Part shown: piece after piece, positions 1 through 23,303 of the stretch
How the letters are laid out: each line of letters starts with the position of its first letter
How positions within the stretch are numbered: position 1 is the first letter of the stretch
Origin: a virus
Taxonomy: Duplodnaviria > Caudoviricetes
Strand: one strand, 5' to 3'
DNA length: 30,984 nucleotides
IMG/VR virus record: IMGVR_UViG_3300031673_000322
Coordinates: 1 to 30,984 of that record
Notes under the pieces: generated by a model
The model's input: only the letters and a program-made list of their open reading frames with translations
Told to the model about the DNA's origin: nothing
Databases searched by the model: none
Made by a program: the position numbers and the translations under genes

Positions 1-6
1 TTTGAT

Positions 7-876: not shown

Positions 877-1296
877 ATGAAAAAGGCATATTCCATATTG
901 GCAATTTTATGTTTTGCGTCCGTAGTGGTAGCAGGATTTAATATTCCTGTTTCCGGGAACAAACTATCCGTCACGGATCACAGGATCGTAATGTCTGGTG
1001 GTGGCGGAGAGGGTACTGTTGTTACCAATATTATTGTTACTCAAATTAACGCAGTTCCTAATCCAGCAGGAACATACATCGAGGGCGATTTATATAATGG
1101 TCACAGGTCGTGGTATTGTTCTGCAACTGCCTATAGTATATGGTGGGATACTCCCTCTGGAGGATATTATATGTTGGGGCCTTTTACTTGGGATTGGATA
1201 ACTATGGCAGGCCCGACGGGAACTTATGAATGGGACGGGTGTCCAGAAAATTCTGGTACCGCATCCGCCGCATTTCAAGTGGTTACGAATTTTTAA
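877..1296 (+). CDS. Hypothetical secreted-type protein
   Basis: Starts immediately after the upstream TAA; MKKAYSILAILCFASVVVA signal-like; aromatic-rich beta domain. Confidence 0.65.
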   Translation: MKKAYSILAILCFASVVVAGFNIPVSGNKLSVTDHRIVMSGGGGEGTVVTNIIVTQINAVPNPAGTYIEGDLYNGHRSWYCSATAYSIWWDTPSGGYYMLGPFTWDWITMAGPTGTYEWDGCPENSGTASAAFQVVTNF

Positions 1297-1325
1297 CAGT
1301 AGAAATATAAATAAGGAGAACGAAA

Positions 1326-2735: not shown

Positions 2736-2869
2736 TAGAGAGTTGCAAATCCGTCTGGTCATTTTGCTGGAGAACAGCGATCGGAATGTTTGTTTGTTCT
2801 GTCGTGCTTTTAATTATGGGAATTGTATCAGAAATCTCAAAAATAAAAGGTTTAAGGAGAACGCTATAA
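2717..2869 (+). CDS. Possible 50-aa single-TM protein (not in ORF track)
   Basis: TTG start after GGGGG; MGSCRIIESCKSVWSFCWRTAIGMFVCSVVLLIMGIVSEISKIKGLRRTL; its TAA overlaps the next ATG (TAATG). Confidence 0.35.
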   Translation: MGSCRIIESCKSVWSFCWRTAIGMFVCSVVLLIMGIVSEISKIKGLRRTL

Positions 2870-3228
2870 TGCCACCTGAATATGTAACAAGAGATGAATG
2901 TAAAGATACTAGCGGGAGAATTTTATCTCTTCTTCAGGAAATTAATGCCCGTCTTTATAAAGACAATGGAACAAAATCTCATCAAACTTTAATCAATGAA
3001 CAGGGAGTTGCTATAACTGAACTTGCCAAAGCGATGACAAGTTACAAGGAAACGGTAATTGATCACGACCGACTCTTAGTGGGATACAAGACAGTATCTC
3101 TTCTCGGTTTGTGGGTATTGAGAATTGCTGGTGGAGCGTGTGTGTTAGGATTAATAACGCTTATTGCCCTCGCAATTAAACACGCCCTTATCAGCGAAGC
3201 GGTTAAGCAAATGTTCGGGGCTAGTTAA
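2869..3228 (+). CDS. Coiled-coil protein with C-terminal TM segment (holin/haemolysin-like)
   Basis: Start re-called to ATG 2869 because of AAGGAG RBS; hydrophobic LLGLWVLRIAGGACVLGLITLIALAI. Confidence 0.6.
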   Translation: MPPEYVTRDECKDTSGRILSLLQEINARLYKDNGTKSHQTLINEQGVAITELAKAMTSYKETVIDHDRLLVGYKTVSLLGLWVLRIAGGACVLGLITLIALAIKHALISEAVKQMFGAS

Positions 3229-3229
3229 A

Positions 3230-3427
3230 ATGAAATTTGAAATCATTGAACGATTACCGTCGCTGGGAGCAAGGATATGGGAGATCAAATGCCTGTCCTG
3301 TGGAGTCAAATTTAACTACGACAGCAACGAACCGCATAACTACGGTTTGGTTGTATGCACAGGGAAATGTCACAGTACTGAACGATGGAAAGCTGCAAAA
3401 GCAAGATACGATAAGGAGAAAGAATGA
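3230..3427 (+). CDS. Small zinc-ribbon protein
   Basis: ATG 3230 next to the upstream stop; CLSC...CTGKC; ATGA overlap with the next gene. Confidence 0.6.
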   Translation: MKFEIIERLPSLGARIWEIKCLSCGVKFNYDSNEPHNYGLVVCTGKCHSTERWKAAKARYDKEKE

Positions 3428-4269
3428 AAATGTCAAAAGGATTTCAACCGTCTGAATTTCCGCTTGGACAAAGCCTGTTCTGGATGGACGGCGATCACCC
3501 CGAATCAACTTGGGATTGGCTTGCAAGGGATGTTGACGACGCTCAGCGAAACAGGATGTACGCAAAGTTGCAACAGTACAAAGACCAGACAGGAACGCCA
3601 AGCTGGACGACATCCTTTCTGGTATATAATATGGTTGACCCAAACTGCCATCCTGTTAATCCATTTCTCGGCAGTCCTACCGCAAGTCAGGTTGTTAAAA
3701 GCGGAGGCGGTCAAGCAGATGATATTGAACTTGCTAAATGGAGATCGAGATTGTCGTTAGGGCAACTTCCGGGAGTCAATCTTGTTCCTTGTTTGTACTG
3801 TGGCGACGATAAAGCCACGATACAAAACTACACCTTCGTAAATTATTTCACACCGTTGGCTGTGCAATTTATGGCACCGTATTCCAAAGCCATATGCATC
3901 TGTTCCGAACCACCGAAGAACGCCAATGTGCAATGGCAGGAATCGGTAATAACGCTGGTAAAGAATACGCTTTCGTTTATGGGGCGTTCTGACATACCCG
4001 TGGTTACCCATCTTCAGGGCGACCAGATACTGACGCAGCGTCCACAAAACGCAGACGGCATCCTTTACCAGTTCCGTACCCATCCCGGCGAAGCCCACAA
4101 ACGGAACATTGACGAGGTTGTGAATGAGGGTAAATGGGCGTTGGCTAACTCCCCTGTCCCGTTAGGATTTTTTGAACTTGCGGTTTTGTGCGAAGACCCG
4201 AGAGTGAAAGAGATGACCAGAAAGTTAAGAGCATTACCAGAATGCGGGATGCTACCCGGGCCGACATGA
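3424..4269 (+). CDS. Hypothetical protein, possible glycoside-hydrolase clan A TIM barrel
   Basis: AAGGAG RBS; alternating beta/alpha pattern with ICICSEP (acid/base-like) and LGFFEL (nucleophile-like). Confidence 0.5.
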   Translation: MKMSKGFQPSEFPLGQSLFWMDGDHPESTWDWLARDVDDAQRNRMYAKLQQYKDQTGTPSWTTSFLVYNMVDPNCHPVNPFLGSPTASQVVKSGGGQADDIELAKWRSRLSLGQLPGVNLVPCLYCGDDKATIQNYTFVNYFTPLAVQFMAPYSKAICICSEPPKNANVQWQESVITLVKNTLSFMGRSDIPVVTHLQGDQILTQRPQNADGILYQFRTHPGEAHKRNIDEVVNEGKWALANSPVPLGFFELAVLCEDPRVKEMTRKLRALPECGMLPGPT

Positions 4270-5329: not shown

Positions 5330-6302
5330 CGTCCCGACCGTAGCGATCCACCAACCGCTGGATAGCACGGCAAAGCTTAATTACACCTATCGTAACAAGC
5401 TGATCAACGGCGACCTTTCGGTCTGGCAGAGGGGTACTCCTTTTTCGATAAATCCTTCTGGATATACCGCTGACAGATGGCTTGCCACGATGATTGGTAG
5501 CGTCACAAGGATGGAATTTGCTTCTGGCGAATCGGAGCTGATGGACAACGACCAGTACTACCTGCTTGCCCATCCGACTGGCGGCGACCTGAGTATAATC
5601 ATCGAGCAGAGGATTGAAAATGTGCGGACTATGGCTGGAAAACAGGTAACCCTGACATTCTGGGCGAAAGCCGAGGGAAGCATAAGCCTCTCCGCCAGCT
5701 TGACCCAGCACTTCGGTACAGCCCCGTTGCCGATTGTCCCGTCCGCCGATGAAGTTGTTACCCCGCCGTCTGTGACAATCCTGACATCGTGGTCGAAGCA
5801 CACCATAACAATTACATTGCCGTCCGTAGCCAGCAAGGTAATCGGGACGAACGGCGATCATTATCTTGCCCTGAAGCTGACAATGGGTTCCTCGAACTTC
5901 TATCTTTCTCACCTCCAACTCGAGCAGGGGCCGTTGGCAACCGACTTTGAAAAACGGCATCCCGGCGAAGAGCTGCGGATGGCAAGGCGATACTATGAGC
6001 AGATGGACTTTGACAACGCCCGTCTAATACCTGCCGTTGGACACGCAACCGCTATCAATTACGCAACGCTCGTCCTGCCGTACCAGACCAAGAGGATTGC
6101 ACCGACCATCGTCGTGCCGTCATCTATTCAGGTACTCAATGTTGGTGGGTCTGCCCAATCGACAGCGTGGACTACCGTTCTGGCGAATGTGGATTCATCC
6201 GAAATCAAGGCTTATGCTTCCGCCTCGGGTCTTTTAACTGGAAATGTAGTCGTCGCTAAATCAGCGGGGTCAAGCAGTATCACGATTGATGCGGAGTTAT
6301 AA
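5301..6302 (+). CDS. Tail fibre-associated carbohydrate-binding-like protein
   Basis: RNKLINGDLSVWQRG, YTADRW, VTLTFWAKA, QLEQGPLATDFE..EL..ARRYY motifs typical of phage fibre domains. Confidence 0.75.
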   Translation: MAGTIQANISVPTVAIHQPLDSTAKLNYTYRNKLINGDLSVWQRGTPFSINPSGYTADRWLATMIGSVTRMEFASGESELMDNDQYYLLAHPTGGDLSIIIEQRIENVRTMAGKQVTLTFWAKAEGSISLSASLTQHFGTAPLPIVPSADEVVTPPSVTILTSWSKHTITITLPSVASKVIGTNGDHYLALKLTMGSSNFYLSHLQLEQGPLATDFEKRHPGEELRMARRYYEQMDFDNARLIPAVGHATAINYATLVLPYQTKRIAPTIVVPSSIQVLNVGGSAQSTAWTTVLANVDSSEIKAYASASGLLTGNVVVAKSAGSSSITIDAEL

Positions 6303-6303
6303 A

Positions 6304-8073
6304 ATGGGATATGTATTCGACGGATTTGAAAATATACAGGCTGGCATGAACGGTGCGGTCTCTCCGTCCCTGATTGGCGTTAACGAGATGTCCAAGGGGG
6401 TCAATCTTGATATGAGGAGCGGTCGCCCATGCACCCGCCCAGCCTATGTCGGATACGACATCACAGGAAGCTCGAGGGATATGCTGAACACGCTCAAAAA
6501 CGGTCGATATCAGGGCGGAGCAGTCTATAAGCATGGTGGGGTGGAATACCTCGTATTTGGCGTATTTGGCAGGCTCTACGCCCTGCATCCTGAGACCTTG
6601 CTGGTCACAGACATCACCTGCGGAGAGGGTTTAAGCCCGAATGTCCAGAGGCTCTACTTCTGTCAGGCAAACGAGTATATGATCATTCAGGACGGCGTAA
6701 ACCGCCCTATTATCCTCTCTGGTCTCTCGGCAAGGTATTCCGCTGGCGGAGACGATCCTGAGAAGCCTGAGGTGCCTGTCGGCACGGCTATGGCGTTCGG
6801 GCAGGGTCGCCTGTTCGTCGTGATAGATCGCAAATACATTATGGCTGGGGACATCTACCTGCCGTGGGACAGGATCAGAGTCCTACAGTTCACCGAGACG
6901 CAGTACCTTGCTGGTGGAGGTGCGTTCGGGTTGCCTGCGTGGCTGGGCAACATCAAGGCGATGACTTTCCAGCAGAATGTCGTCAGCGGGACAGGGCTGG
7001 GAGCGTTGCTCGTGTTTGCCGACCAAGGAGTCTGTTCGTTTGGCGTCCAGAACCCCAGATCAACTTGGAACACGGTTGACATCTCCAGAGTTCTCTACAA
7101 GGACGGTGGAGGAACAAGTCCTTTGTCCGTGGTCTCAGTCGGAAACGACATTGTCTATATGGCTGAGGACGGCCTGCGTAGCATCAAAGTCACCTCTGGT
7201 GAGTCTCAGGGTGGCGGGGCAACCTTCCAGAGCATCCCTCTCTCACGCAAGGTTCAGTCGCTGGTCGATGATGATACGCCTTGGGCATACCAGTATGGGT
7301 CAGGAACCCTGCACGACAACCGCCTGTATTTTACCTCGATCGCTAGAAAGCACAATGTGGTCAATCCAGTTGGTAACGAGGTGGAGGATTTTTATTTCAA
7401 TGGGTTGACAACCATCGATCTCCTCGGTTCGACTGGCCTACCGATGGTGTTCGAGGGGGTGTCGACCGGGATTAAGTATCTACAGGTTTTCAGCGTTGAC
7501 AGGTTCGGCAGGAAGGCACTCTGCGTATTGGGTCTGGGAGCCGAGGACGAGATCGGGTTCTATGTTCAGGAGCCAGCTACCAGCCTAGACAACAGGGTGT
7601 CAGCAACGCCGTGCAAGGTCTACACCTCAGCAATGAACTTTAACAGCCCGTCCGTGTTATTGAAAAAGTTCTCCTATGCCGACCTTTGGTTTTCAAAATT
7701 GCGTGGGGCGGTTGGCGTGTCGCTGTACTACAGGGCGGAGGGGTATGAGCTGTGGACGCTGGCTGGGGAGATTAATTTTATGGCGAAGGACGGATCGGAC
7801 GGCACCGAGAATGTGTACCCGCAGATCCGCCAGAAAATGAGATTGACGGAATCAAGTCACGGGCTATCGGAGGAGGAAAGTGAACTGAAGAACAAGCTGA
7901 TCGGCTCCAAGATACAGTTCTGTATATCATGGACAGGGTACGGTCAGCTTGACAGGTTTGTGGTCGTGGCGGACACGCAACCTGACGCCCCGATCATTGA
8001 GGAAAACGCTAGCGACCGAACTTATGAGTTGACAGGAACACAGTTAATGGACTACGATTACATCGCAGCTTAG
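6304..8073 (+). CDS. Tail tubular protein B / P22 gp10-like stabilisation (nozzle) protein
   Basis: Start re-called to ATG 6304 (GGAG RBS); about 590 aa beta-propeller-like; PLSRKVQ and KKFSYADLW motifs; synteny. Confidence 0.7.
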   Translation: MGYVFDGFENIQAGMNGAVSPSLIGVNEMSKGVNLDMRSGRPCTRPAYVGYDITGSSRDMLNTLKNGRYQGGAVYKHGGVEYLVFGVFGRLYALHPETLLVTDITCGEGLSPNVQRLYFCQANEYMIIQDGVNRPIILSGLSARYSAGGDDPEKPEVPVGTAMAFGQGRLFVVIDRKYIMAGDIYLPWDRIRVLQFTETQYLAGGGAFGLPAWLGNIKAMTFQQNVVSGTGLGALLVFADQGVCSFGVQNPRSTWNTVDISRVLYKDGGGTSPLSVVSVGNDIVYMAEDGLRSIKVTSGESQGGGATFQSIPLSRKVQSLVDDDTPWAYQYGSGTLHDNRLYFTSIARKHNVVNPVGNEVEDFYFNGLTTIDLLGSTGLPMVFEGVSTGIKYLQVFSVDRFGRKALCVLGLGAEDEIGFYVQEPATSLDNRVSATPCKVYTSAMNFNSPSVLLKKFSYADLWFSKLRGAVGVSLYYRAEGYELWTLAGEINFMAKDGSDGTENVYPQIRQKMRLTESSHGLSEEESELKNKLIGSKIQFCISWTGYGQLDRFVVVADTQPDAPIIEENASDRTYELTGTQLMDYDYIAA

Positions 8074-10280: not shown

Positions 10281-11414
10281 ATGGCAAATGAATATTTAAG
10301 CCGAGAAGATTACGAAGCACAAAATCCCGGTAAAAGCTACGAGGATTATCAGACCTCCAAAAATCAGAAGCAGCAGTATGATGCTTACGAAATGATGATG
10401 GGCGTTCCGCCGACCGAAGCTGTTGACTACGACGCTATGTACGGCTCGATGGCGGATATGTACGAGAAGATATCCCAGATGAATCTGGAGAAGTTTGAAT
10501 CGTATTGGCCTAAGTCAATCGAGGAAGGCATATCGGCGGGAGAGCAATTTGACACCGCTGGACGGGCCGCTGCGGGTCGTGCGTCAGCTTATAATATGCA
10601 ACTTGCCGACCAGATGAACAACTGGCTGGCAAACCTATCCAAATACGGCAATGCGTTCATGCGGGACGAGGCTACCAAATCCAATAAATGGATCATGGAT
10701 CAGGTCGGCGATGTCAACAAGTTCAACTCCGAAGAATTTTACACCGCCCTAGAGACCGCTATGCCCGGAGTAAGAGACACCGTCTCCGATTACAAGAAGA
10801 CCGTCGACCAGATGTTGTCTGGAGAGCTTCCAGACTCCGTCAAAAGCGAGATTGCCCAGACCGCTGCTGAGCGTGGTTTATCTACTGGAATGTATGGCCC
10901 AGCGTACGATAACGCCCAGTTGCGAGATCTTGGGCTTAGTCGCCTGCAGTATGTACAGGCTGGACAGGCTCAGATGGGGCAACTCTCGGGGATAGCAGGG
11001 CAGATGATGGCCCCTGTCGCCACGCCGAACATATACCAGAATGTCATGATGACGCCGACGCCTTACACCCCGCAACCGACATACGCACAGCCAAGTAATG
11101 TACCCGGAATTGCAGGCAACTATCTGTCGTCCATTATGGGCGGGACGATGATGCAGCCACAGGCAGGTATAGGAGCAGCGGTTCAGATGGGCGGAGTGCA
11201 GGCACAGATCAATCAGGCGAATACGCAGTTGCAATACTCGAAGGCAATGAGCGGTCTGAATTACGGGATGGATCAACAGGCACAGGCACAGAATTACGAG
11301 ATGTTTAAACAACAGATGAACGCACAGCAAGAGCAACAATGGTGGAATCTTGGAGGGAGCATACTTGGGGCAGCAGGCAAAGTAGGAGCGGCATTTGCAA
11401 TGCCGGGACTTTGA
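10281..11414 (+). CDS. Internal virion (DNA ejection) protein
   Basis: Q/M/A/G-rich helical protein ending in GGSILGAAGKVGAA; position between tail genes and the giant gene. Confidence 0.65.
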   Translation: MANEYLSREDYEAQNPGKSYEDYQTSKNQKQQYDAYEMMMGVPPTEAVDYDAMYGSMADMYEKISQMNLEKFESYWPKSIEEGISAGEQFDTAGRAAAGRASAYNMQLADQMNNWLANLSKYGNAFMRDEATKSNKWIMDQVGDVNKFNSEEFYTALETAMPGVRDTVSDYKKTVDQMLSGELPDSVKSEIAQTAAERGLSTGMYGPAYDNAQLRDLGLSRLQYVQAGQAQMGQLSGIAGQMMAPVATPNIYQNVMMTPTPYTPQPTYAQPSNVPGIAGNYLSSIMGGTMMQPQAGIGAAVQMGGVQAQINQANTQLQYSKAMSGLNYGMDQQAQAQNYEMFKQQMNAQQEQQWWNLGGSILGAAGKVGAAFAMPGL

Positions 11415-11524
11415 CAAAACAAGTAACAACTCAGCATATGCTGGCGGTTACAGCGGAAGATACGGGTCAGATAATTTAAATCCGTACAGCGAGACGAATC
11501 TAGGTTATTAAAAGGAGAATTTAA

Positions 11525-13060
11525 ATGGCATATCCAGTATATCAGAGGAGAGAGCAAGTACAATATCCTGACCCGAAGAACATGGTTGTCAACTGGTCGA
11601 GAGCTGCGGACAAGATTACTGAGGGGATCACCGAGGGGATCAGTCTGGGAATGAAGATAAAAGAAAGCAAGGAAAAATCTGCCATGAACCTTGCGAACCT
11701 CAAGTCCCTCGATGTAGCCACAAGGACAAAGCAGTTCGAGCTTCAAACAGCGGAGATGAGAAGGGCGGCCTTGTTGAGAATGGACGCTTTGACTGAAAAA
11801 AATTTAGATGCTCAAAATCAGATAAACTATAGTGCCTCCGCTATTTCAGCAGCACAGGCAAAAAGTGCCATGCAAGCAAAAATGAACGCTCAGGATCTTC
11901 AAGCACTTGAGATCAACACTCAATACCTAGACCCAATAGAAGATATTATTAATAACGCATCGGTAATGGAGGCACGGATAGCACAGGTTGGCGACCCGTC
12001 GGTGGCATATCAATATCTCAACGATGCAAAAAAGGAAGTAGACGAGTTACGGGGCAAGATAGGGATTAATATTTCTACTTTTGCCCAGCGACTTAAAAGA
12101 GGAAAGAACGACGCTCGGGCGGATCAAATATCAAAACTTGATCCAATTGTTCTGGAAGAGAGGTTTTTGGGGAAGGTAATGGTTCCTATATATACGAACG
12201 AGCTTAAAAAATACGACTATGGTTTATATGCCGGGGGAGACATTGGCGACATCGAAAAGCCGACTGCAATTACCACAACATCGGTAACTATGGTTCCGTG
12301 GACTGTTGCGAAGAATTACTGGCGTGGCAAAATGAGTACAGAAACTTTTGAGTCCGTAAGAGAGAGTGCGTCTAATCCTGAAAAGTTTGATAAACTAGCA
12401 AGGGAGCAGGGACTTGGTCATTTACTTCCCAAGGTTGTAACCCCAGCAGTAGGCGTGGACGGAGTTCCGCTCGATCTTAAATTTATGAAGCCAGCAGGCG
12501 AGAACGAAACAATATCGGAGCAGGCTAGAAGGGAACTGGTTCTGGCTGGCGAGAAAAGTCCCCTTAATGTAGCAACAGGATCAATAACTCAAAAGTTAAG
12601 CGAAAAATTAACTACTCACGAGTTCTCCGTTGTAAGTGGGCTTATAAATCCGGGTACGGGATTACTCTCCTATTCTCCTGCTATAGCAAGAGAGACGGGA
12701 AGTATTGTTAAATGGCTGGCAGAAAAAACTGGAATTGGGATAGAAGCGTCGTATAAATTGCATGATAAAATAAAAAACATACTTCCAAGGGCTGGAGAAG
12801 CGACAAAAGCGTTTAGGGGCAACCCCGCCAATGTAGAAGCGGAAAATAAATTCTGGGAAGGAAGGCGTAACGATTTGTATGCGGAATTACCCACCGCCTC
12901 CCCCGCCCGTAAGGCTGTTATTAATGAGGCGATCGGGCTTATCAATCAACAACATCTAAAGCCACAGACAGAATTTCCCGACGAAGCATCTGCAAGAGCT
13001 TATGGATGGAAGACTGGGGATACTATAACTATTAATGGTCGCCCGGGAACCTTAGACTAA
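11525..13060 (+). CDS. Internal virion (DNA ejection) protein
   Basis: AAGGAG RBS; GITEGISLG followed by coiled coil; C-terminal KTGDTITINGRPG motif. Confidence 0.6.
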   Translation: MAYPVYQRREQVQYPDPKNMVVNWSRAADKITEGITEGISLGMKIKESKEKSAMNLANLKSLDVATRTKQFELQTAEMRRAALLRMDALTEKNLDAQNQINYSASAISAAQAKSAMQAKMNAQDLQALEINTQYLDPIEDIINNASVMEARIAQVGDPSVAYQYLNDAKKEVDELRGKIGINISTFAQRLKRGKNDARADQISKLDPIVLEERFLGKVMVPIYTNELKKYDYGLYAGGDIGDIEKPTAITTTSVTMVPWTVAKNYWRGKMSTETFESVRESASNPEKFDKLAREQGLGHLLPKVVTPAVGVDGVPLDLKFMKPAGENETISEQARRELVLAGEKSPLNVATGSITQKLSEKLTTHEFSVVSGLINPGTGLLSYSPAIARETGSIVKWLAEKTGIGIEASYKLHDKIKNILPRAGEATKAFRGNPANVEAENKFWEGRRNDLYAELPTASPARKAVINEAIGLINQQHLKPQTEFPDEASARAYGWKTGDTITINGRPGTLD

Positions 13061-13061
13061 A

Positions 13062-16000
13062 ATGAGCATCACATTTCTTGATGAAGCACCATCTCAAAAT
13101 AAAGGCATTACTTTTCTGGACGAGAGTTCAGGGGTAAATCCTAACCCCAGCGTTCCCCTCACTCAAAAAACTCGTGACGCCGCTGGCGGTGGCAAGCCAG
13201 AAGATGGTGGATTCTTAAGCGACCTTTCCTTGGCAGGCAAGGTGATCGGGACTGGAGTCTACTCCGCCTTTGCCGATATGTTTCCGAAGATCCTCGCCGA
13301 GGCAATCCGTGCTGGTGACATCGACACAGACACCGCCAACACCGCCCTCGACCGCTGGATTCAGGAACAGAAGAAAGACCTCGAGCGTTGGGATCTCACG
13401 GAAGCCGAGAAGAACGACAAGTTGTTCGGGATTATCAAGGCACAGGATGTATTGTCTGGATTACAGAATCTCGGCTATTCCGCTGCGATTGGGGTAGCTG
13501 GTATGGTAGGCGGTGCTGCGATTGGATCTTTGGCGGGGCCAGCAGGAACGGTCGCAGGAACAATAGGCGGAATAGCAGGGGGGGTAGCTGGTGCGGGAGC
13601 CATTACCTTCCCTGTGATGTATAGAGCCACCAAGGATCAGTTTTTGGCTGATATGCTCGACAAGGCACAAAGAGAAAAGCCAGATCTCACCGACGCCGAA
13701 TGGAACGAGATGAAGGTTGCTCTGGAGTCCGACGCCCAGATGTACGCCTTTTGGGAGGCAGCCCCTGAGACGGTCGGCAATATGATCACCGCTGGTATCA
13801 TCAAGACCCCAATCGGCTCGATCCTGAAGCGTATCCCTGATATTAAGAACATCATCTCACGCACCCTCGCAACGGCTGGCACTAAGATCGCACTCGATAT
13901 TCCTGAGGAGTTGGCGACAGAAACTCTTACCCAGTATCAGCAGGCTAAGATCGAGGCAAAGCCTGAGGTCGGCTTGCGTGACAAGGCACCCACGATTAAG
14001 GAAGCGTTCACGGAGATTGCTCCTCAGGTTCTTGTGACCACGATTGCGGGGCTGGGAATGGGATCAGTTGCATCCAGAGCGTCCGAGGTCAGGCAGGAGA
14101 TCAACTTCCACCAACGGCTTAGTAAACTGGGATATGAACCCAAAGTAATCAGGGATCTCTCCTCGAAGATCGGCTTTGACGAAAGTGCGTTACGACTTGC
14201 TGAGCAAAACGCTCCTGTAGTAGCTGAGGCAATCAACAACAATATGTTACCCTCGACCATAGGAGAAATGAAAGGATCCCTGCTCCCGAGTCTTGTGCTG
14301 ACGACCTACAACAATGCCAGCGATAACGGGGCAAATCCTACCGCTGGCAGGGCTGCGGTCGAGGAACTCGTTCGGTCGGATAATTACAAACGCTTCCAGA
14401 AGCTTTTGAGACAGGCACGGGTAGATCAATCAGCAAAGAAAAAAGGAGGCAAAGATGCCGAAGGTACTAGAGGACAAGCTGAAGAGAGAGGCAAAGAAAC
14501 GAGGGTACGGGAAGAAGAAGGCAGGAGCGTATATTTACGGTACAATGCGGAAAACAGGCTGGAAGCCACCGAAGGAACAACATCAGACTTGGAGAGAGAA
14601 ACACGAGAAGCGAAGGAAGCGGAAGAATTAGCGGTGTCCTCGTCCATTCCAACCACTAAAGTTAAAAAAGGGCAACAGCCCATTACGACTAAGGGAATTA
14701 GGGCGGGGACACTTCCGCAAGTTGAGCCAGCGATAATGCAGGCGATACAAAAGGACGAGGCGGTTAACAGGATTGGTCTTGCGAAACCACCGCCCGTGCG
14801 ACCAATTGGTGAAGCCAAGTTTGCAACCACGGCTGAAGAGGCGACTCCCGCCGTCACTTCGTTTATTGAGAATATAGCAGGTCAGGGGCGTACCTTGCCT
14901 GTAAGTGAGAAAAGACCTGATGCCGACGCCGTCATCCTTACCGGGGTCAGGGTAGACCTTGCTCCAGACGGCAACAGGGTGCGGATTATTGACATGAAGG
15001 CGTTTGAACCCGGGCAAGGGGATCTCGTCAACCTGATGAGGATGCTGAGAGAAACCGCACGGGATACCAATGTTGATCTGGTGGTTACTCCTGCTGGAGA
15101 TAGTGCCGCACAGAAGAGTGCGGTGACTACATGGTATGGAGAGAACGGTTTTATACCCGAACCGAACGGCGATATGATTTTCACGCCAACAACAACCGAA
15201 CCACAGGAAGCCCAGAAGCAGGCGTTTATGGCTAGGGCAAAAAAGAGGATCAGGCTAGTCGCCGAGGCACGACCCGCCGCAAGGTCGTATGCATTCAGTC
15301 GATTTACGAATTCGCCTATGTCCGAAAAGGAGATTGAGGATGAGTCGGATAAGGCACTCGCCAAGGCAGTCGCAACCTTTGATATCGACAAGCCCAACTT
15401 TACGAGCTGGATGAAGACAGTTGTATCCCAGAGTCTCCAGAACTACATAGACAAAGTAAACAATGCAGCCAAGAGAGAGCCTTCGACAGTAAGTTTCCAG
15501 ACGCCAGTTCGGGTCGGTGCAACAGCGGAGGGCGAGGCGGTCGAGGTAAGTAAGGATGTATCCGAGATAGTAATGGAGAAGGGCAACCCGAGGGACATCG
15601 TAATGTCAAACGAGTTCTGGGAGGACTGGAAGAGGTTGCTGGGGGTTTGGGGACTTGAGGGCTTGTCAGAGACCAGAAGAAAGGTTATGGTTCGTCATTT
15701 AGAGGGGATGAATCACGCCACCATCGCAAGGGAACTTGGCTTCGATCAGACCAAGGTCGAGAGGGAATACGCTGGTGCCACGAAGCAGTTCAAAGAATTT
15801 CTTGATAATCATGGCTTCGTGGAAGCCGAGGCTCAGCAGGTATTGGCGGAGGTAAGAACGAGAGATGTATTTTATGGAGGATTAAAAGATGACACAGCAA
15901 GACCAACAGAACAACCAACCAAGCAGCCGAGTAAACGACCTAGTGAACAACCTAGCGGACGAACAGTCCCCCGGGGAGGACAGCCCGTCCAACGAGTCGG

Positions 16001-19000
16001 AGAGCCATCCGTCGCTGGTGAAACTGAAGAGCAAAGACGGCAAAACCGTAGTGACATTCTCCGTACGGGTTGGAACGCCTTACGAAGACTCAGACGCAGA
16101 GCAAGTGCAAAAGGCAATACAGGCTGGGATGCTCCCGTTGTAGACCTTATCCGTGGGGCAGAGCCAGTCTTCAAAGACCTGAGCAACAGGGCGGTAGAGA
16201 TTACCGACATATTTGCCCAAGAAGGATATACCGCCGTCTTCATCCATAACCCGCTGGTTAGGATATCCGCCGTGACGATGGCGGACGAGAAGGTTGTCGT
16301 CTTTAACCAACGGACAATCGACAGCTCCCATGAATTATTCCATGTTAAGATCAATAAGGGTGACGCAGGGGCGATGGCGATCCTCAAGTTTGTCAGGGAC
16401 GAGTGGGGTGTAAGCAATGATATGTTCACAAAATATCGCCTCGGGATGGCAAAGTCCCTGAGGACTGATATCGCCAATATTTCCCGAGAGAGGGTCGAGG
16501 AGGATATCGCAGCTGATTACTACCAAGCCACGATAGATAATAGGCTGTTCTCCCGCAACAATGTCGAGTTCTTTGGGATGGTGACCATCGACAGGCTGGC
16601 TGGATACCCAGAGACAACCCTCCCTCCGTACATTACGGAAGGGGAGACAGGTGAAATAAAAAGTAGTCCTCCTGCACCCAACGCCTTCCAAGATGGTAAG
16701 GACGCACAGGAGATAACTCGCAAATACGGAGATGCCACAGGATCCATTGAAGACATTAAATATGCCGTCAATAATAAATATACCATGAAATCATTCCCAA
16801 TACCCGTCGGACAACTCGCCACGCTCGATGAGCTGGGCAAGCCACTTTCAAATGTATTTAGTGCTGAGGCACAGATATTGAATCAACTCTTCCCTAATTT
16901 ATTCAAGGGAGACCCATCTAAACTTAGCATTATAGATTCCATTAATGTTATCCGAAAGGCTAAAGCAAACGGAGACCTTGCTGATTTTATGACAGGGAAA
17001 CGCATTTCTGATAATAGCATTATATCTTGGAGTGGTACTCAGGCGTCCAACACTATAAGAAAAGTAGAAGCCTCTTCGTTCAGAAGGATGAAACCAAACG
17101 AGCTTACTGGCACGGGCGGATTTTGGACAAAGAACATTAAGACTGGACTCTCCCTTGACTTTGCCTTGTCGTCCTGTGTTCCTACCGCCGCCTGTCCACG
17201 ATGCTACGCGGCGTCTGTCATTCAGTCCCACACATTTCAACAAGTCAATTATTTCAGAAACCTTCTCTGGGCGATCCACGATCCCAACGCTTTTGCTGAT
17301 GCTTCTTTGAAGGAATTAAAGGGTATACATTCGTCGATGACAAAAGAATCGTTAGCTTCCCTCGGAGGAATGCATATTAGGTTCAATGCATTCGGGGATA
17401 TAGGATTCAAAGAACAAGTGCAAGCCATGAACCGCATCATAGAAGGTATGCCACAGGATACAATCGCAGTTATCTTTAGTAGAAATCATACGGCACGATG
17501 GAAAGGGCAGGGTGCTTTGGATCAAATCGTTGTTCCAAAAGGAAAGAATGTAATCATAAATGCCTCGGTAGATCGCCAGCTCGTGCGTGAGTATGGCATT
17601 TCAGCACTCAAGAAACTTCCAAAGAATTGGAATATATCCTACCTTTATGTTGGCGAGGAAGATATTAATGTTTTGAGAAAACTTCTTAATGCCGATCTAT
17701 TCCCGATCATACACATCGACAAAGATGACTACAACAATGATAGCATACGGACATCTCTCAAAAAGGCTTATGTTGATACTGGGTATGAAGCAAATACTGA
17801 CACAGCCACCGTCTGCCCCTGCTCAGTAAGATTCCAGCCTCAGGCATCCTCGTGTGTGCAATGTCAAAAAGGTACGCACGGTTGCTTCCGTATGACAAGA
17901 GTGGCGGTCAATAATAAACTTGTGAGGGGTGCGGCGTTGGCGAGAGTAATGGTCTCGTTAAAGAAGACAAGAGACGAGTTGAAGGTCGATAAAAAAGGAA
18001 AACAAAAGACCAGCCCCATCAGGTTGTGGGATGGAGCCTTGGTAAAACCATTATCTATTATCGAAAGAAATCCCAAGAATATTGGTAGGGCAGAAAAATA
18101 TATAGAACACCTCGGAAGAACCGTCGAGCAACTACAGACCGAAAAACCACAGGCAGTTGCAAAAGCGACTGAGATCGTGAGCGGAAAGATTCAGCCGACG
18201 GTTAAGTTCGCCGTCGAGGAAAGTCAATTAGCCGACGGATCAATCATAATGGAACAGCCTAAGTTCGCTGTTACTTCTATGCCTATTGAGGAAGCGAAAA
18301 ACGACGAGTCTGTTTTCTGGCACGGTTCACCAAGCGGAGACCTTCGTGGATCAGCCAATGGTCTTCATATTGGAACATACACCGCAGCAAAGCAGGCTCT
18401 TGAAGCACGGATCGGGGTACCCGCAGTCGGCGAATGGGACGGAACAAGAGAATACGGAAAGACTCTCATCGCAGGGAATAAGACATTGAAAAAAATTGAT
18501 CCAAGAGGATACAACCAAACTGGATTTAATATTGAAGCACCAGAGGAAGATTATTATCCTACTGGAAAGGCAGAGTACAGCGACAGGACGCCCGTAGCGA
18601 TGACGGCAACGCCAAGCCTTAGGGCGTTTAGGATCACGGGCAAAATGAGCAATACTCCTCAGAACGCCTTGGAAGATTTTAAGGCAAACGCTGTGATGCG
18701 TGGGCAAATAACACGGGGAATGGCAAGGCGGGGATATTTTTACGAAAATGTTGGAGAGGATGAGGGATCTATTTCCGCAGTAATTCCCGCCTCTTCTCAT
18801 ATCGAAGAGATATCACTTACCGAAGAACCCAAGACCGCCGTCACCTCCACCGAGGATCAGGTGTATTACCACGGAACGCAAAGTGAGTTTGCCGAATTCA
18901 GCGATAAGATAACGAATATCAATGCCTATGGCAAGGGGTTCTACTTTACCACGGACAGACAGAGTGCCGAACGATATGCAAAGGCAGAAGAGGGTGGTCG

Positions 19001-22000
19001 CATACGGACAATCAGAGGAGAGCGTCCCAGAGTAATTTCTGCCCGTTTAGAAATCAAAAAGCCGTTCGTTATGGGGCAGGGACTCGTATCGAACGAAGAT
19101 CTCGCCACGATCAATTCCATTGCTGGCTGGGAACTCGGCCCATTTGACGAATCATATAAACCCACAGCAAATGCCGTCTGGTCGGAACTGGTTATAAACT
19201 CCACGGGAGACAAGGCGACTACAGCAAATCAGATTCTCCAGAAAGCAGGATTTGATGCCATTGTCGCCCCAAAAGAAACCATCGTATTCAAACGAGAGCG
19301 GATATTGGGTCAGCAAAGCGAAGATGTAAAATTCGCTACCCGTGCCGTCACCCCCGCCGAGGATCAGGCGTATATGGATGCGGTCGAGAAGGGTGACACA
19401 GCGACTGCCCAGAGGATGGTGGACGAGGCTGCGAAGAAGGCATGGTATGACTCCGAACCAGTTTATCACGGTAGTCCTCATGCTGGTTTCACTAAATTTG
19501 ATATCCCATCTAAAGGGTACAATAGTAATGTGCTTGGATCTTGGGATGTTGAGCGTAATGTAGCCTTTTTTACTCCAGATAAAAACGCAGCGGCTGGATA
19601 TCAAACCCAAGGAGGAAGAACTTCTGGAGAAACTAGAAAGTTTTATTTGGATGGTGAGTTCGCCGATCTTCGCAAAGGTATTAGCGAAGCAAGGTTGAAC
19701 ACGCTTGTTGATAACGGAGTTAACGAAAGGTTTTTATCTCAAAAAGGAGCAAGCTGGGAACTATTTGATAAAGAACAAGACCCAGATGGAACTATAGTTA
19801 AAGCATTTAAAAAGATGGGGTACGACGGGGTAATTATTCACGATACAGACGGAATAAATGATTTTGATTCTTATGCCGTCTTCTCCCCCTCCCGCATCAA
19901 GTCTGCCGACCCCGTCACCCGTGACGACGCTGGCAATGTAATCCCGCTGTCCAAAAGATTTGATCCGAAGAAAGAGGACATCAGGTACGCCGTTGAGGAC
20001 GATGCCATGGTGGACGAGATGGTTCCGCCTGAGGACATAGAATATACCACGGAAGAAGCCGAAGCTGAAGCCGAAGAGGAAGCCGCCCCCGTTTCCGAGC
20101 AAAAACCATCCCGCACGGCGTTGAACATCTCCCGGGACACGCAGGGGATACGGTCTGAAGATTTGAGGGCTGAATTTGTTGACATCTTCTACGAGGTCAA
20201 GCCTAATGTGGTGCTGATTGACGAGGTTATGTCGATACTTAGCACCGAGGGTATAAACAACGCCCGTGAATTGTACTTTAACAGAGGTTCGAGGATCACC
20301 GCCGACCAGAGGGTTCTCCTCGGCTTTATCCTGATGAAGACTCACGACGACGAGGCACAGGCGGTTAGGTCTACCAATCCAGAACTCTCCGACAAGCACT
20401 ACGACATGGCGGTGGATATAGGGCTGGAATTAGACGAGATTAACCGTGAGTACGGTCGTGCGGTTCAGGCGAATGCAATTATGTGGCGGAGCGTCCTTGC
20501 GACGCCAGCAGGGGCCGAGAGGTTCATGAGGAAGATTGTCAACCGCTACGCCGACTCGGTAATGCAACGGCAAGATGTCAAGGACTTGGTGTTGGGATAC
20601 CGTCGAATTACCGAAGGGGCCGCTGGCGAGGTGGTTAACGAGCCGTATATCCAACAGAGAATTGCCAATGTCCTCGAGATGATCTCCTCGGAGCGTGAAA
20701 AAGAGCTGACAGGATATCTCGCAAACGATGAAAAAATGAAGGTGGCACAGGAGACCCTCTCCTCGGAGGAGACTGAGATCCCTGCTGGAATATCACTTGC
20801 CACAGAGCAGTCAGAGGAGCTTACCCTTGACGAGAAGCTCGGGATGTTTGCCAGATACGGTATGGGCTTGATCATCAAGGGAAGGATCAGGACGCTCAAT
20901 GAGTTCTCAAAGGCAATGACCGAGAATATCCCAGATCCCAATTTGCCACAATATATGGGAAGAATCTACAACGACGCAAAGATCAGGGCGATGGATCGCA
21001 TAGCCCGTGGTGCAAGAAAGGCGACGAAGGCGGAAACTAAGAGAGAGAAAGCGGGCGGAAGGGATGTCGCCAGGCAGGTTAACGCCGTCCTGAGGGAATG
21101 GGCTACTGGCAGCCTGACCGCCGAGCCTCGAACAATCATCGACAGGCTTGCCCAGCTTGGCGTCTCCGAAGCCAGAGCGACAAAGCTAATGGACGCTACC
21201 CGTACACGCTTTGCTGAGAGGACTGTGAAACGCAGGGCGGATTTCCTCAAGAAGTTTACGACAGGCAGGAAGATCGATCCTGAGACACAGAAAGCATACA
21301 AGAATATTACAGAGCTGGCTAGCCGTGATGATCTAACGGACGAAAATGTCCGTGACGCCATCGTCACAGCATTTGATTTGCCCGACCCAAAGAGCGAGAG
21401 GATCAGAACCCGGGTAGCCAAACTAGCAAAGGCCATCAAAGACGCTCCCGAGGGATTTAAAAAAGACGATGAAGTCCGCAAGATGCTTGACTTTATCAGG
21501 ACGGAGATGCCCATAGCAAAAATGGATGTGGTGTGGTCGCTCTGGTATGCCAACATCCTCTCTGGATACCAGACCGCCGAGCGTAATATGGCTGGTAATT
21601 TATTCAACTTAATAAGCACACTCACGGCATCGATAATTGTCGAGCCACGGAACGCCCCTGTCGCCCTCTGGGGGTTCGTGAAGGGTGTAGGCTCCGGGAT
21701 GAGAGCTGCGTACAATGTAATGAAGACAGGGAGCTTCCCTATCCGTGACGAAAAGTACGAGCAGTCGCAGGTTCTTGAGTTCTTTCCGTTCCGTGGGATG
21801 ATGAAGGTGCTATCCAACTGGAAGTATGTGCTTCGCTCCCTGCAAGCAGTCGATATGCTGTTCTACAAGGCTGGGCAGGAAGCTCGTGCAATGATGCTAG
21901 CGGCGGACATCGCCCGAACGGAGAGCGAGACACCAGCGGATAAAGTATGGGAAAGGGCGGCTGAATTAACTGGGCTATCAAAAGATGTTCAGGCAAAGTA

Positions 22001-23303
22001 CAGGGCAATTGCGATAGCAGAAAAGTTTAGAGGCAACGAAATCGAACTGAGGGTTCAGGAACTTGCAGAGAGGAATCGCCCCGAGGAGATTACTACCGAG
22101 GCAACCGACTACGCCAGACGGGTGACATACAACTATCAGCCCGAGGGGCAACTTGGGATCCTCGCCAAAGGGATATCAGAAGTTTCCAAGTCTGTGCCGA
22201 TGCTGAGACTGGCGGTACCTTTCACGAGGATCGTTGCAAATGTCGGCAACACGACGATTGACTATACTCCTTGGGGCTTCGTACGGGCGATCCGTGGGAT
22301 GCGTGATCTAAAAGGCAAGCTGACTCCAATGACAGGTCATCGCCGTGCGACTACGATGGCAAAGGCTATGATGGGAACCATAGGAATGGTGTCCGCTTAT
22401 ATGGCAGACAAGATGCAGGGAGATGATGACGATGAGGACAAAAAGACCTTTGCGATATATGGCTCTGGGCCAAGTGAACTGAACAAGGCGTATCAACTGC
22501 GACAAACTGGATGGCGTCCTTACAGCTTCAAGTTTGGGAAACGGTATTTCGACTACCGCCTGACCCCGCTGGCGATCCCGTTTGCCATCATCGGGTCGAT
22601 CCGTGACGCCGAACGCTGGCACAAGCTGGATGAGAAGAGCAAATGGCAAAGAGCTTCGTATGCCACCCTGAAGTCTGGATCGGTCATATTTGATATGTCC
22701 TTCCTGTCTGGAATCAATCAGGTTATGACTATGTTGCAGTCAGGCACCTCGGAATCGAGCGGAAGGAAGTTGCAGAATTATCTGATCCGCAATGCGAGTT
22801 CGGCGGTACCAGCGTTGTTCAAGCAGATCGACAGGACATTCGATTCCCAGATCCACGACAACGCAACGATACAGGAAGCGTTGCTTCGGGAGTTGCCTGT
22901 TGCGTCCCGCCTTGTCAGACCGAAACTGAACCTGCTCGGCGAACCAGTCCCGCAACTGACTGGGCCACTCTCCATCTTTATCAGCGATAAGCAATCCGAT
23001 CCTGTATGGAGATTCATCGCCAACAAGGAAGTCTTTATCAGCAAGCCTCCGAAATCCACGACGGTCGGCAGGGGCAGAAGGAAGCGTATGATGACCGAAG
23101 AGGAGTACTACACTTACATACAGACATCAGGAAAGATGATCCGTAATATGCTGGAGAGAACCCACACCAAATTAGAGAAGATCAAGGATCGTGACAGGAT
23201 CGAGAAGATCGTGGACAAAGCCGTAATAAAAATACGATCCAAGGTGAAGCGAAAGATCTACATCGACAGCGTAAGAGCGAGGAGGAGATCAAGTGCCATC
23301 TGA
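13062..23303 (+). CDS. Giant polyvalent virion/ejection protein (3413 aa): Gly-rich TM, GNAT, sigma-70 r2+r4, HExxH peptidase, GP88/radical-SAM-like, 3 ADP-ribosyltransferase-like modules, LPD38-like C-terminus
   Basis: Motifs EPGQG..WYGENGF; FTSWMKTVV..IARELG; HELFH..EEDIAAD; CVPTAACPRCYA..IRFNAFGD; WHGSP, YHGT..GFYFT, YHGS..GYDGVI; PFTRIVAN. Confidence 0.85.
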   Translation: MSITFLDEAPSQNKGITFLDESSGVNPNPSVPLTQKTRDAAGGGKPEDGGFLSDLSLAGKVIGTGVYSAFADMFPKILAEAIRAGDIDTDTANTALDRWIQEQKKDLERWDLTEAEKNDKLFGIIKAQDVLSGLQNLGYSAAIGVAGMVGGAAIGSLAGPAGTVAGTIGGIAGGVAGAGAITFPVMYRATKDQFLADMLDKAQREKPDLTDAEWNEMKVALESDAQMYAFWEAAPETVGNMITAGIIKTPIGSILKRIPDIKNIISRTLATAGTKIALDIPEELATETLTQYQQAKIEAKPEVGLRDKAPTIKEAFTEIAPQVLVTTIAGLGMGSVASRASEVRQEINFHQRLSKLGYEPKVIRDLSSKIGFDESALRLAEQNAPVVAEAINNNMLPSTIGEMKGSLLPSLVLTTYNNASDNGANPTAGRAAVEELVRSDNYKRFQKLLRQARVDQSAKKKGGKDAEGTRGQAEERGKETRVREEEGRSVYLRYNAENRLEATEGTTSDLERETREAKEAEELAVSSSIPTTKVKKGQQPITTKGIRAGTLPQVEPAIMQAIQKDEAVNRIGLAKPPPVRPIGEAKFATTAEEATPAVTSFIENIAGQGRTLPVSEKRPDADAVILTGVRVDLAPDGNRVRIIDMKAFEPGQGDLVNLMRMLRETARDTNVDLVVTPAGDSAAQKSAVTTWYGENGFIPEPNGDMIFTPTTTEPQEAQKQAFMARAKKRIRLVAEARPAARSYAFSRFTNSPMSEKEIEDESDKALAKAVATFDIDKPNFTSWMKTVVSQSLQNYIDKVNNAAKREPSTVSFQTPVRVGATAEGEAVEVSKDVSEIVMEKGNPRDIVMSNEFWEDWKRLLGVWGLEGLSETRRKVMVRHLEGMNHATIARELGFDQTKVEREYAGATKQFKEFLDNHGFVEAEAQQVLAEVRTRDVFYGGLKDDTARPTEQPTKQPSKRPSEQPSGRTVPRGGQPVQRVGEPSVAGETEEQRRQNRSDILRTGWNALRRLRRRASAKGNTGWDAPVVDLIRGAEPVFKDLSNRAVEITDIFAQEGYTAVFIHNPLVRISAVTMADEKVVVFNQRTIDSSHELFHVKINKGDAGAMAILKFVRDEWGVSNDMFTKYRLGMAKSLRTDIANISRERVEEDIAADYYQATIDNRLFSRNNVEFFGMVTIDRLAGYPETTLPPYITEGETGEIKSSPPAPNAFQDGKDAQEITRKYGDATGSIEDIKYAVNNKYTMKSFPIPVGQLATLDELGKPLSNVFSAEAQILNQLFPNLFKGDPSKLSIIDSINVIRKAKANGDLADFMTGKRISDNSIISWSGTQASNTIRKVEASSFRRMKPNELTGTGGFWTKNIKTGLSLDFALSSCVPTAACPRCYAASVIQSHTFQQVNYFRNLLWAIHDPNAFADASLKELKGIHSSMTKESLASLGGMHIRFNAFGDIGFKEQVQAMNRIIEGMPQDTIAVIFSRNHTARWKGQGALDQIVVPKGKNVIINASVDRQLVREYGISALKKLPKNWNISYLYVGEEDINVLRKLLNADLFPIIHIDKDDYNNDSIRTSLKKAYVDTGYEANTDTATVCPCSVRFQPQASSCVQCQKGTHGCFRMTRVAVNNKLVRGAALARVMVSLKKTRDELKVDKKGKQKTSPIRLWDGALVKPLSIIERNPKNIGRAEKYIEHLGRTVEQLQTEKPQAVAKATEIVSGKIQPTVKFAVEESQLADGSIIMEQPKFAVTSMPIEEAKNDESVFWHGSPSGDLRGSANGLHIGTYTAAKQALEARIGVPAVGEWDGTREYGKTLIAGNKTLKKIDPRGYNQTGFNIEAPEEDYYPTGKAEYSDRTPVAMTATPSLRAFRITGKMSNTPQNALEDFKANAVMRGQITRGMARRGYFYENVGEDEGSISAVIPASSHIEEISLTEEPKTAVTSTEDQVYYHGTQSEFAEFSDKITNINAYGKGFYFTTDRQSAERYAKAEEGGRIRTIRGERPRVISARLEIKKPFVMGQGLVSNEDLATINSIAGWELGPFDESYKPTANAVWSELVINSTGDKATTANQILQKAGFDAIVAPKETIVFKRERILGQQSEDVKFATRAVTPAEDQAYMDAVEKGDTATAQRMVDEAAKKAWYDSEPVYHGSPHAGFTKFDIPSKGYNSNVLGSWDVERNVAFFTPDKNAAAGYQTQGGRTSGETRKFYLDGEFADLRKGISEARLNTLVDNGVNERFLSQKGASWELFDKEQDPDGTIVKAFKKMGYDGVIIHDTDGINDFDSYAVFSPSRIKSADPVTRDDAGNVIPLSKRFDPKKEDIRYAVEDDAMVDEMVPPEDIEYTTEEAEAEAEEEAAPVSEQKPSRTALNISRDTQGIRSEDLRAEFVDIFYEVKPNVVLIDEVMSILSTEGINNARELYFNRGSRITADQRVLLGFILMKTHDDEAQAVRSTNPELSDKHYDMAVDIGLELDEINREYGRAVQANAIMWRSVLATPAGAERFMRKIVNRYADSVMQRQDVKDLVLGYRRITEGAAGEVVNEPYIQQRIANVLEMISSEREKELTGYLANDEKMKVAQETLSSEETEIPAGISLATEQSEELTLDEKLGMFARYGMGLIIKGRIRTLNEFSKAMTENIPDPNLPQYMGRIYNDAKIRAMDRIARGARKATKAETKREKAGGRDVARQVNAVLREWATGSLTAEPRTIIDRLAQLGVSEARATKLMDATRTRFAERTVKRRADFLKKFTTGRKIDPETQKAYKNITELASRDDLTDENVRDAIVTAFDLPDPKSERIRTRVAKLAKAIKDAPEGFKKDDEVRKMLDFIRTEMPIAKMDVVWSLWYANILSGYQTAERNMAGNLFNLISTLTASIIVEPRNAPVALWGFVKGVGSGMRAAYNVMKTGSFPIRDEKYEQSQVLEFFPFRGMMKVLSNWKYVLRSLQAVDMLFYKAGQEARAMMLAADIARTESETPADKVWERAAELTGLSKDVQAKYRAIAIAEKFRGNEIELRVQELAERNRPEEITTEATDYARRVTYNYQPEGQLGILAKGISEVSKSVPMLRLAVPFTRIVANVGNTTIDYTPWGFVRAIRGMRDLKGKLTPMTGHRRATTMAKAMMGTIGMVSAYMADKMQGDDDDEDKKTFAIYGSGPSELNKAYQLRQTGWRPYSFKFGKRYFDYRLTPLAIPFAIIGSIRDAERWHKLDEKSKWQRASYATLKSGSVIFDMSFLSGINQVMTMLQSGTSESSGRKLQNYLIRNASSAVPALFKQIDRTFDSQIHDNATIQEALLRELPVASRLVRPKLNLLGEPVPQLTGPLSIFISDKQSDPVWRFIANKEVFISKPPKSTTVGRGRRKRMMTEEEYYTYIQTSGKMIRNMLERTHTKLEKIKDRDRIEKIVDKAVIKIRSKVKRKIYIDSVRARRRSSAI
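14455..14631 (+). CDS. Nested +1-frame 58-aa basic protein inside the giant gene
   Basis: AGGAGG RBS 5 nt before ATG; MPKVLEDKLKREAKKRGYGKKKAGAYIYGTMRKTGWKPPKEQHQTWREKHEKRRKRKN. Confidence 0.65.
   Translation: MPKVLEDKLKREAKKRGYGKKKAGAYIYGTMRKTGWKPPKEQHQTWREKHEKRRKRKN
15889..16143 (+). CDS. Nested +1-frame 84-aa acidic protein inside the giant gene
   Basis: GGAGG at 15876-15880, 8 nt before ATG; overlaps a low-complexity linker of the giant protein. Confidence 0.5.
   Translation: MTQQDQQNNQPSSRVNDLVNNLADEQSPGEDSPSNESESHPSLVKLKSKDGKTVVTFSVRVGTPYEDSDAEQVQKAIQAGMLPL

Follow-up and report, generated by a model that had tools for sequence, protein, structure and literature searches.

A conserved CTT-stop-C gene end as a probable +1 shifty stop yielding two forms of a probable phage ejection protein

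Background

Why should a phage structural gene end in CTT TGA C—the same combination of codon, stop, and following base as the frameshift site of prfB, which encodes RF2—and be followed by a long gap that is open throughout in the +1 frame? The question is raised by a 30,984-base virus record (the whole stretch of DNA analysed here, hereafter "the window") in which tail, lysis, and recombination genes are also present. The features at issue are the following:

10281..11414, + strand: gene in the 0 frame, 377 aa, 41.4 kDa, likely the first ejection (internal virion) protein
11349..11411, + strand: Gly/Ala-rich, mildly hydrophobic C-terminal segment (residues 357-377; best 19-residue hydropathy 1.14)
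11406..11415, + strand: candidate shift site GGA CTT TGA C (GGA 11406-08, CTT 11409-11, TGA 11412-14, C 11415)
11413..11511, + strand: +1-frame extension of 32 codons, last residue Tyr, then TAA at 11509-11
11512..11517, + strand: AAGGAG, ribosome-binding site of the next gene, abutting the TAA of the extension
11525..13060, + strand: next gene, 511 aa, syntenic in 11/11 loci, likely the second ejection protein

The original prediction, made from this sequence, held that the gene closes with GGA CTT TGA C and that a 32-codon +1 frame fills the 110-nt gap up to a TAA at the AAGGAG; the coordinates bear out both points exactly. Read from 11413, the +1 frame encodes DKTSNNSAYAGGYSGRYGSDNLNPYSETNLGY, and the two remaining frames run into stops after 3 and 22 codons. 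If CTTT is taken as a single step, translation would give a 409-aa, 44.8-kDa long form with the junction peptide VGAAFAMPGLDK, in which the segment comprising residues 357-377—the end of the short form—adjoins the tail. The 377-aa protein itself is rich in Gln, Gly, and Met and mostly helical by low-confidence prediction.

A CTT-stop-C gene end shared by diverged orthologs

The terminal site is the sole in-frame CTT-T of the gene. Taken in the window alone, the pattern is weak and unremarkable: two copies of GGNCTTTRRC are present where 0.83 would be expected, and 11.6% of shuffled spacers retain an open +1 frame. It is through conservation in relatives that the pattern rises above chance. Locus searches gave 33 loci, from which ten relatives were kept, making with the window 11 distinct loci with a complete gene end. 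Excluded were 11 copies or near-copies (L001, L007, and L023, represented by the window; L014 and L024; L013 and L025; L005, L015, L026, and L027), the near-copy L011, seven loci in which the gene runs off the contig, two without a re-hit, and the distant weak matches L022 and L029, both lacking a CTT-stop. Searches with neighbouring genes and with a profile returned no additional locus or close homologue, and no relatives were found in an annotated phage collection or in 400 further genomes of the phylum of G001. A gene end of the form GGN-CTT-stop-C is present in three of the 11 loci:

Window: GGA CTT TGA C; gap from the 377-aa gene to the ATG at 11525, 110 nt; +1 frame of 32 codons, stop 13 nt before the ATG
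L002: GGA CTT TAA C; gap 114 nt; +1 frame of 34 codons, stop 11 nt before the ATG
L003: GGT CTT TAG C; gap 100 nt; +1 frame of 30 codons, stop 9 nt before the ATG

Gaps of 100-114 nt are confined to these three loci, the other eight having gaps of 12-18 nt, a coincidence expected once in 165 permutations. All three +1 tails end in Tyr, the other frames closing early, and their stops lie 9-13 nt before the next ATG, which is the spacing at which the genes of the other orthologs end. Among the latter, an in-frame tail ending in Tyr is found in L004, L010, L018, and L032 (L010 and L018 being close kin), and a long in-frame tail with a different terminal residue in L009; the tail is absent from L008, L012, and L016 (3/11 loci) and is thus dispensable in some lineages. 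At the protein level, 18 aligned sequences include five that end in Gly-Leu (GL), five with Tyr-ending tails, and one with a Peptidase_S74 domain, and the P0011 cluster has nine members, each 362 aa long with GL at its end. The GL-ending P0003 and P0006 are known here as proteins only; a search for the DNA of two Leu-ending distant representatives did not find it. The slip-prone codon directly before the terminal stop is therefore a conserved feature. Conservation of CTTTGAC in related phages, proposed earlier as a check, holds for CTT-stop-C in L002 and L003, though not for the identity of the stop, which is TAA in one and TAG in the other.

Two lines of evidence argue that this conservation reflects neither recent common descent nor chance. 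The proteins of the window, L002, and L003 are 60-64% identical, and their fourfold-degenerate sites agree at a rate of only 0.23-0.31, such that synonymous sites are saturated; across 11 columns in which all three have Leu, the codon is identical at the terminal column alone. Furthermore, four of 149 crudely called genes on five contigs end in CTT, three of these being the orthologs themselves, against a background in which CTT makes up 22% of Leu codons; C follows the stop in 31 of the 149 gene ends versus 3/3 at the long-gap loci. For the two relatives, the +1 frame survived spacer shuffling in 17% and 14% of trials. A chance product from the two relatives only comes to ~5e-5, as a rough multiplication that assumes independence.

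The tails themselves carry a coding signature. Gly, Ser, Asn, Tyr, and Thr together account for a fraction of 0.68 of the +1 tails and 0.65 of six in-frame tails, versus 0.18-0.21 when the remaining frames are read. Between the +1 tail of L002 and the tail that P0009 carries in frame, 20/24 residues match, and the last 17 codons of L002 differ from those of L010 at four positions and from those of L018 at three, all synonymous in the +1 frame. The tail DNA of L002 and L010 is more similar than the gene core, so this tail was probably exchanged recently; with about two synonymous changes assignable to the L002 side, the evidence for selection is modest. Homology of the extension to in-frame tails was established for L002, and the window tail is alike in composition, giving no significant match (E 1.1) to P0022, the one in-frame tail with which it was compared.

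In a 23-row core tree, which includes two long-branch outgroups and in which two of the five GL-ending rows are without DNA, grouping of those five rows as one clade was rejected (p-AU 5.6e-8). The site is therefore old or has spread sideways, its history involving either an ancestral site with repeated fusion and loss or spread by recombination. On this comparative evidence, a programmed +1 shifty stop giving a short 377-aa and a long 409-aa form appears likely, and we assign a probability of roughly 0.78 to the explanation as a whole—that a +1 shifty stop yields two forms of a probable phage ejection protein.

Proposed mechanism and candidate stimulators

By extension from work on prfB, we propose that the ribosome would pause when CUU occupies the P site, the Gly codon GGA the E site, and a weak stop with C as its next base the A site. 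A fraction of peptidyl-tRNA-Leu would then re-pair on UUU (11410-12), read GAC, and end at the TAA at 11509, while ribosomes that do not slip would terminate at ...GL. C after a stop weakens termination, CUU-stop is the prfB slip site, and CUU_U attained the top efficiency of 32 shift sites assayed with UAG, according to the available part of one study (PMC5009743). In L003, a +1-frame stop lies three codons upstream of the site, so that a shift could take place only within the final three or four codons (GGA GGT CTT).

At prfB, the stimulator is a Shine-Dalgarno sequence 3 nt upstream of CUU, as given in the accessible sections of two papers (PMC12421855, PMC5009743). A Shine-Dalgarno sequence at this 3-nt spacing is absent at all three phage sites, and a duplex scan agrees with the earlier remark that a prfB-type element is not clearly present in the window; anti-Shine-Dalgarno pairing at 0 nt reaches -3.4 kcal/mol in the window and -2.6 kcal/mol in L002. 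As this canonical stimulator is missing, the long form is predicted to be a minority product, and shift efficiency may be low. One local structure was considered as a substitute:

11389..11405, + strand: candidate 5' stimulator, a 7-bp hairpin ending 3 nt before CTT, -7.3 kcal/mol

This hairpin is non-significant, being matched in stability by 113/300 synonymous shuffles and at 7/119 positions of the gene. In L002, a 6-bp hairpin ends 1 nt before CTT (-10.8 kcal/mol); 11/300 shuffles were as stable, and its stability was matched at 0/116 sampled positions of its gene. In L003, AGGAGGT directly abuts CTT (0 nt; -10.8 kcal/mol), with 12/300 synonymous shuffles as strong. These candidates were noticed post hoc and one of them is non-significant, so we treat them as leads. 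An engineered 12-bp hairpin upstream of CUUUGA gave ~60% of the Shine-Dalgarno effect in a 70S system, only when RF2 was omitted, as reported in the consulted portion of PMC6321510. A broader reading can be built on these leads: that phages have anciently used the RF2 slip site free of RF2 feedback and with any stop, setting the ratio of tailed to tail-less subunits in the injection channel, and that a Shine-Dalgarno sequence at zero spacing and an upstream hairpin can replace each other as the 5' stimulator. We regard this extended version as rather unlikely in its entirety. Were it true, a natural upstream hairpin would replace the Shine-Dalgarno sequence, an arrangement we otherwise found described for engineered reporters alone.

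Alternative explanations

The alternatives to a shift that fixes a two-subunit mixture differ in whether they accept a shift at all. The best-surviving one does, and takes its purpose to be the sensing of RF2 or of termination capacity, such that the isoform ratio would follow the state of the host. In its favour, the window has the prfB motif, CUU-UGA-C, without any change; the weak C context is kept at all three sites; and in the genome bin of one non-shifting ortholog, prfB has the canonical shift site together with its Shine-Dalgarno sequence. Host labels, for which binning of phage contigs is unreliable, assign one ortholog to Candidatus Sumerlaeota and one to a Verrucomicrobiota bin with a canonical prfB site. 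Against this, the relatives use TAA (L002) and TAG (L003), the gene is structural, and a feedback loop is absent. Among prfB motifs from 8,164 genomes, 98.6% have TGA, 1.4% TAA, and none TAG, by the figures in the part of PMC12421855 at hand. Given the RF1-only TAG of L003, RF2 sensing is unsupported as a selected function, and we consider it improbable; because the window stop is UGA, the isoform ratio here would still depend mechanically on RF2. The original prediction of two isoforms in a ratio that could depend on RF2 is thus well supported by comparative evidence for its isoforms but not for RF2 sensing as their selected role. The more plausible purpose would be to set a mixture of tail-less and tailed virion subunits rather than to sense one release factor.

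Slightly less probable still is that the tail is a defunct relic: insertion of a single base would have shortened the gene and left the old tail untranslated in the gap. The absence of a canonical stimulator would suit such decay, and orthologs with in-frame tails (5/11 loci) and without tails (3/11) both exist, implying that truncation is tolerated. Yet this scenario needs an identical break at CTT-stop-C in three lineages whose synonymous sites are saturated; the +1 frames are each open to a terminal Tyr although the tails have diverged; and the two-relative chance product given above weighs against it.

A separate small gene in the gap, beginning at TTG 11395 in the +1 frame (38 aa) and translated by ordinary initiation, is very improbable. 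An AGGAG lies 6 nt before this TTG in the window (duplex -6.9 kcal/mol), but the corresponding TTG of L002 has a purine run at 0 nt and its internal ATGs have weak sites, and in L003 the frame lacks a start upstream of the shift site and has only weak sites downstream of it. Moreover, the tail is fused in frame in other orthologs, and a small gene leaves CTT-stop-C unexplained.

An assembly or sequencing error that broke a continuous frame was allowed for originally, and the window is a metagenome contig. This alternative can be rejected as having a negligible chance: Logan contigs from 3/3 runs cover the site with no differing letter and no gap (rare variants are invisible in such contigs, as opposed to raw reads; the window may itself derive from two of these runs, and the third spans 11192-12200 at depth 7), and two relatives as well as a nine-member cluster stop at the same place.

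Several other readings of the gap were discarded. Stop readthrough is contradicted by the 0 frame, in which the next stop comes after 3, 23, and 8 codons (window, L002, and L003), and a -1 shift by a frame closing after 22, 17, and 6 codons, in no case at the next start. The gap contains one promoter-like site versus 0.8 expected, no terminator, and no Rfam match; the TTGACA at 11411-16 is not conserved in relatives. The z-score of a downstream RNA fold is -2.16 for the window, against 0.62 and 0.70 for the relatives, and transcriptional slippage was rejected by reasoning, the run comprising three T only.

A second candidate site emerged at a 101/102-aa gene ending in CTT TGA or CCC TAA with a +1 frame open into a 570-aa gene (G004:C1:50568-52590 and G002:C1:47601-49644; L053 and L056). 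Two of its four distinct close orthologs (L054 and L055) end in CCG TAA with the +1 frame closed, and the gene that follows begins at a start of its own; this site is probably due to chance.

Identity of the protein and role of its tail

The 377-aa protein is probably an ejection protein, an assignment that draws on gene order and on a language-model lead. In the Atlas, its lead is a cluster of which 46% is PF25688 (P22_gp7), with a score of 0.94 at rank 10 of 30. Pfam and PHROG gave no match, a direct hhalign comparison with P22 gp7 gave none, a PDB sequence search returned no relevant match, and the AlphaFold model is poor (pLDDT 47). Two further genes provide context:

6286..8073, + strand: 595-aa gene further upstream, probably encoding a tail hub or tubular protein B (Atlas lead PF11134, 37% of one cluster)
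13062..23303, + strand: 3413-aa protein with ART-PolyVal and GP88-like matches, likely a large ejection or polyvalent protein

The 595-aa protein showed no match to P22 gp10 in direct comparison, and its gene is taken as context for a short-tailed phage. The gene order (595, 386, 345, 377, 511, and 3413 aa) fits the first position among three ejection genes, the neighbours being named by leads, and the available text of a review describes a similar arrangement in P22, where tail genes are followed by genes 7, 20, and 16 (PMC8954989). Like P22 gp7 and T7 gp14, the 377-aa protein appears to come from the first of three genes that rise in size after the tail genes, and it is predicted to be helical and to contain a Gly-rich, hydrophobic stretch (Atlas feature match 0.94); unlike them, it is 377 rather than ~200-240 aa long and has no detectable sequence match to gp7. 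With the gp7 and gp10 comparisons negative and the model poor, the ejection label proposed originally stays a lead—plausible from the Atlas and gene order, but lacking a match to gp7.

P22 packages ~12 molecules of gp7, with residues 21-154 mediating this step, according to the portion of PMC8402733 available. If entry into the procapsid likewise depends on the N-terminus, which the short and long forms share, both the 377- and 409-aa forms would be packaged, by analogy. Most speculative of all is the idea, which we hold only tentatively, that the Tyr-ending tail serves the injection channel for docking or for contact with a membrane. Among 148 distant representatives, the corresponding position has variable low-complexity tails, and a few have an S74-type domain; a Leu end occurs in four of those listed.

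Relation to known frameshift sites

The phage sites resemble prfB in having CUU in the P site, a stop in the A site, C after the stop, and a shift in the +1 direction. They differ in lying at the end of the gene rather than near its start, such that the 0-frame product is a near-full protein; in using TGA, TAA, and TAG without a Shine-Dalgarno sequence at 3 nt; and in belonging to a phage structural gene with no autoregulation and no match to RF2. The phage site thus would slip like that of prfB yet is not a prfB-type site, given its Shine-Dalgarno context, its TAG version, and a product other than RF2.

Closer parallels come from +1 shifty stops of phages: CCC_UGA in tsh of Listeria PSA, A118, and A500, and CCC.UAG in mtp-tpeX of the lactococcal 936 group, as presented in the accessible parts of PMC5009743 and PMC4759559. 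To the extent covered there, these cases resemble the one proposed here: ribosomes shift by +1 at the stop that closes a virion gene, a short form and one lengthened at the C-terminus result, and relatives include in-frame as well as shifted versions (PMC5009743, PMC4759559). They differ in the P-site codon (Pro CCC there, Leu CUU here), in the extension (a folded Ig-like or carbohydrate-binding domain there, 30-34 aa of low-complexity, Tyr-ending sequence here), and in the protein affected, a surface tail or capsid subunit there and a likely internal, injected protein here. With CTT and a low-complexity tail in place of CCC and a folded domain, the present site would be a variant of phage shifty-stop extension, and a fixed two-subunit mixture, as at the CCC-stop sites of tail-tube genes, would be a better fit than RF2 sensing.

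Every CUU-stop +1 entry in RECODE is prfB, as stated in PMC10885494, and the accessible text of the ejection-protein review contains no mention of "frameshift" or "isoform" (PMC8954989). In the literature covered, mainly open full texts, we found neither a phage CUU-stop frameshift nor a frameshift in an ejection gene, and the phage shifty stops that we did find there have CCC and lie in tail-tube genes; the available portions of PMC10386132 and PMC3711429 present no comparable case, although the cluster tables of the latter could contain one. If correct, the reading of a +1 shifty stop would provide a natural CUU-stop-C site outside prfB and would bring programmed recoding into the machinery of phage injection, about whose subunit make-up little is understood. 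Its three versions, each with a different stop and none with the standard stimulator, form a ready set for asking what makes stops shifty. The long form is missed by gene callers; a long gap after a CTT-stop-C gene end offers a signature that can be searched for in phage genomes.

Additional observations

The protein belongs to a large unnamed family (P0020-P0167) with 731 matches at E 0.001 and a common core at about residues 145-250. Among its 148 listed members, 16 end in Tyr and 16 in Phe. A Peptidase_S74 domain is detected by Pfam at the C-terminus of P0014 and P0035, and P0166, P0187, and P0188 look similar by eye; the C-terminal end may therefore be released or varied by cleavage besides frameshifting. 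A basic, Trp-rich terminal domain of an unnamed family is present in P0065, P0077, P0093, P0107, P0125, and P0165.

The last 12 residues are nearly identical in the window (11373-11411) and P0003, reading K[VI]GAAFAMPGL; the two proteins are 66% identical overall and stand apart in the tree. Recombination could account for this shared end, as could conservation of an RNA element, namely the hairpin.

In the 3413-aa protein, ART-PolyVal is matched in two stretches (E 6e-23), alongside a sigma-70 region 4-like match. Its orthologs measure 2489 aa in G002, 2331 aa in G004, and 2827 aa in G001, sizes that suggest a variable injected polyvalent protein as the product of 13062-23303.

Elsewhere in the window, a 139-aa gene at 877-1296 ends in the slip-prone TTT TAA C, with a +1 frame open for 20 codons that does not join the next gene. 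By eye, small genes of the structural region at window positions 1-4269 (877-1296 among them) and at L043:12884-14587 have hydrophobic starts resembling signal peptides, which is unusual for virion genes.
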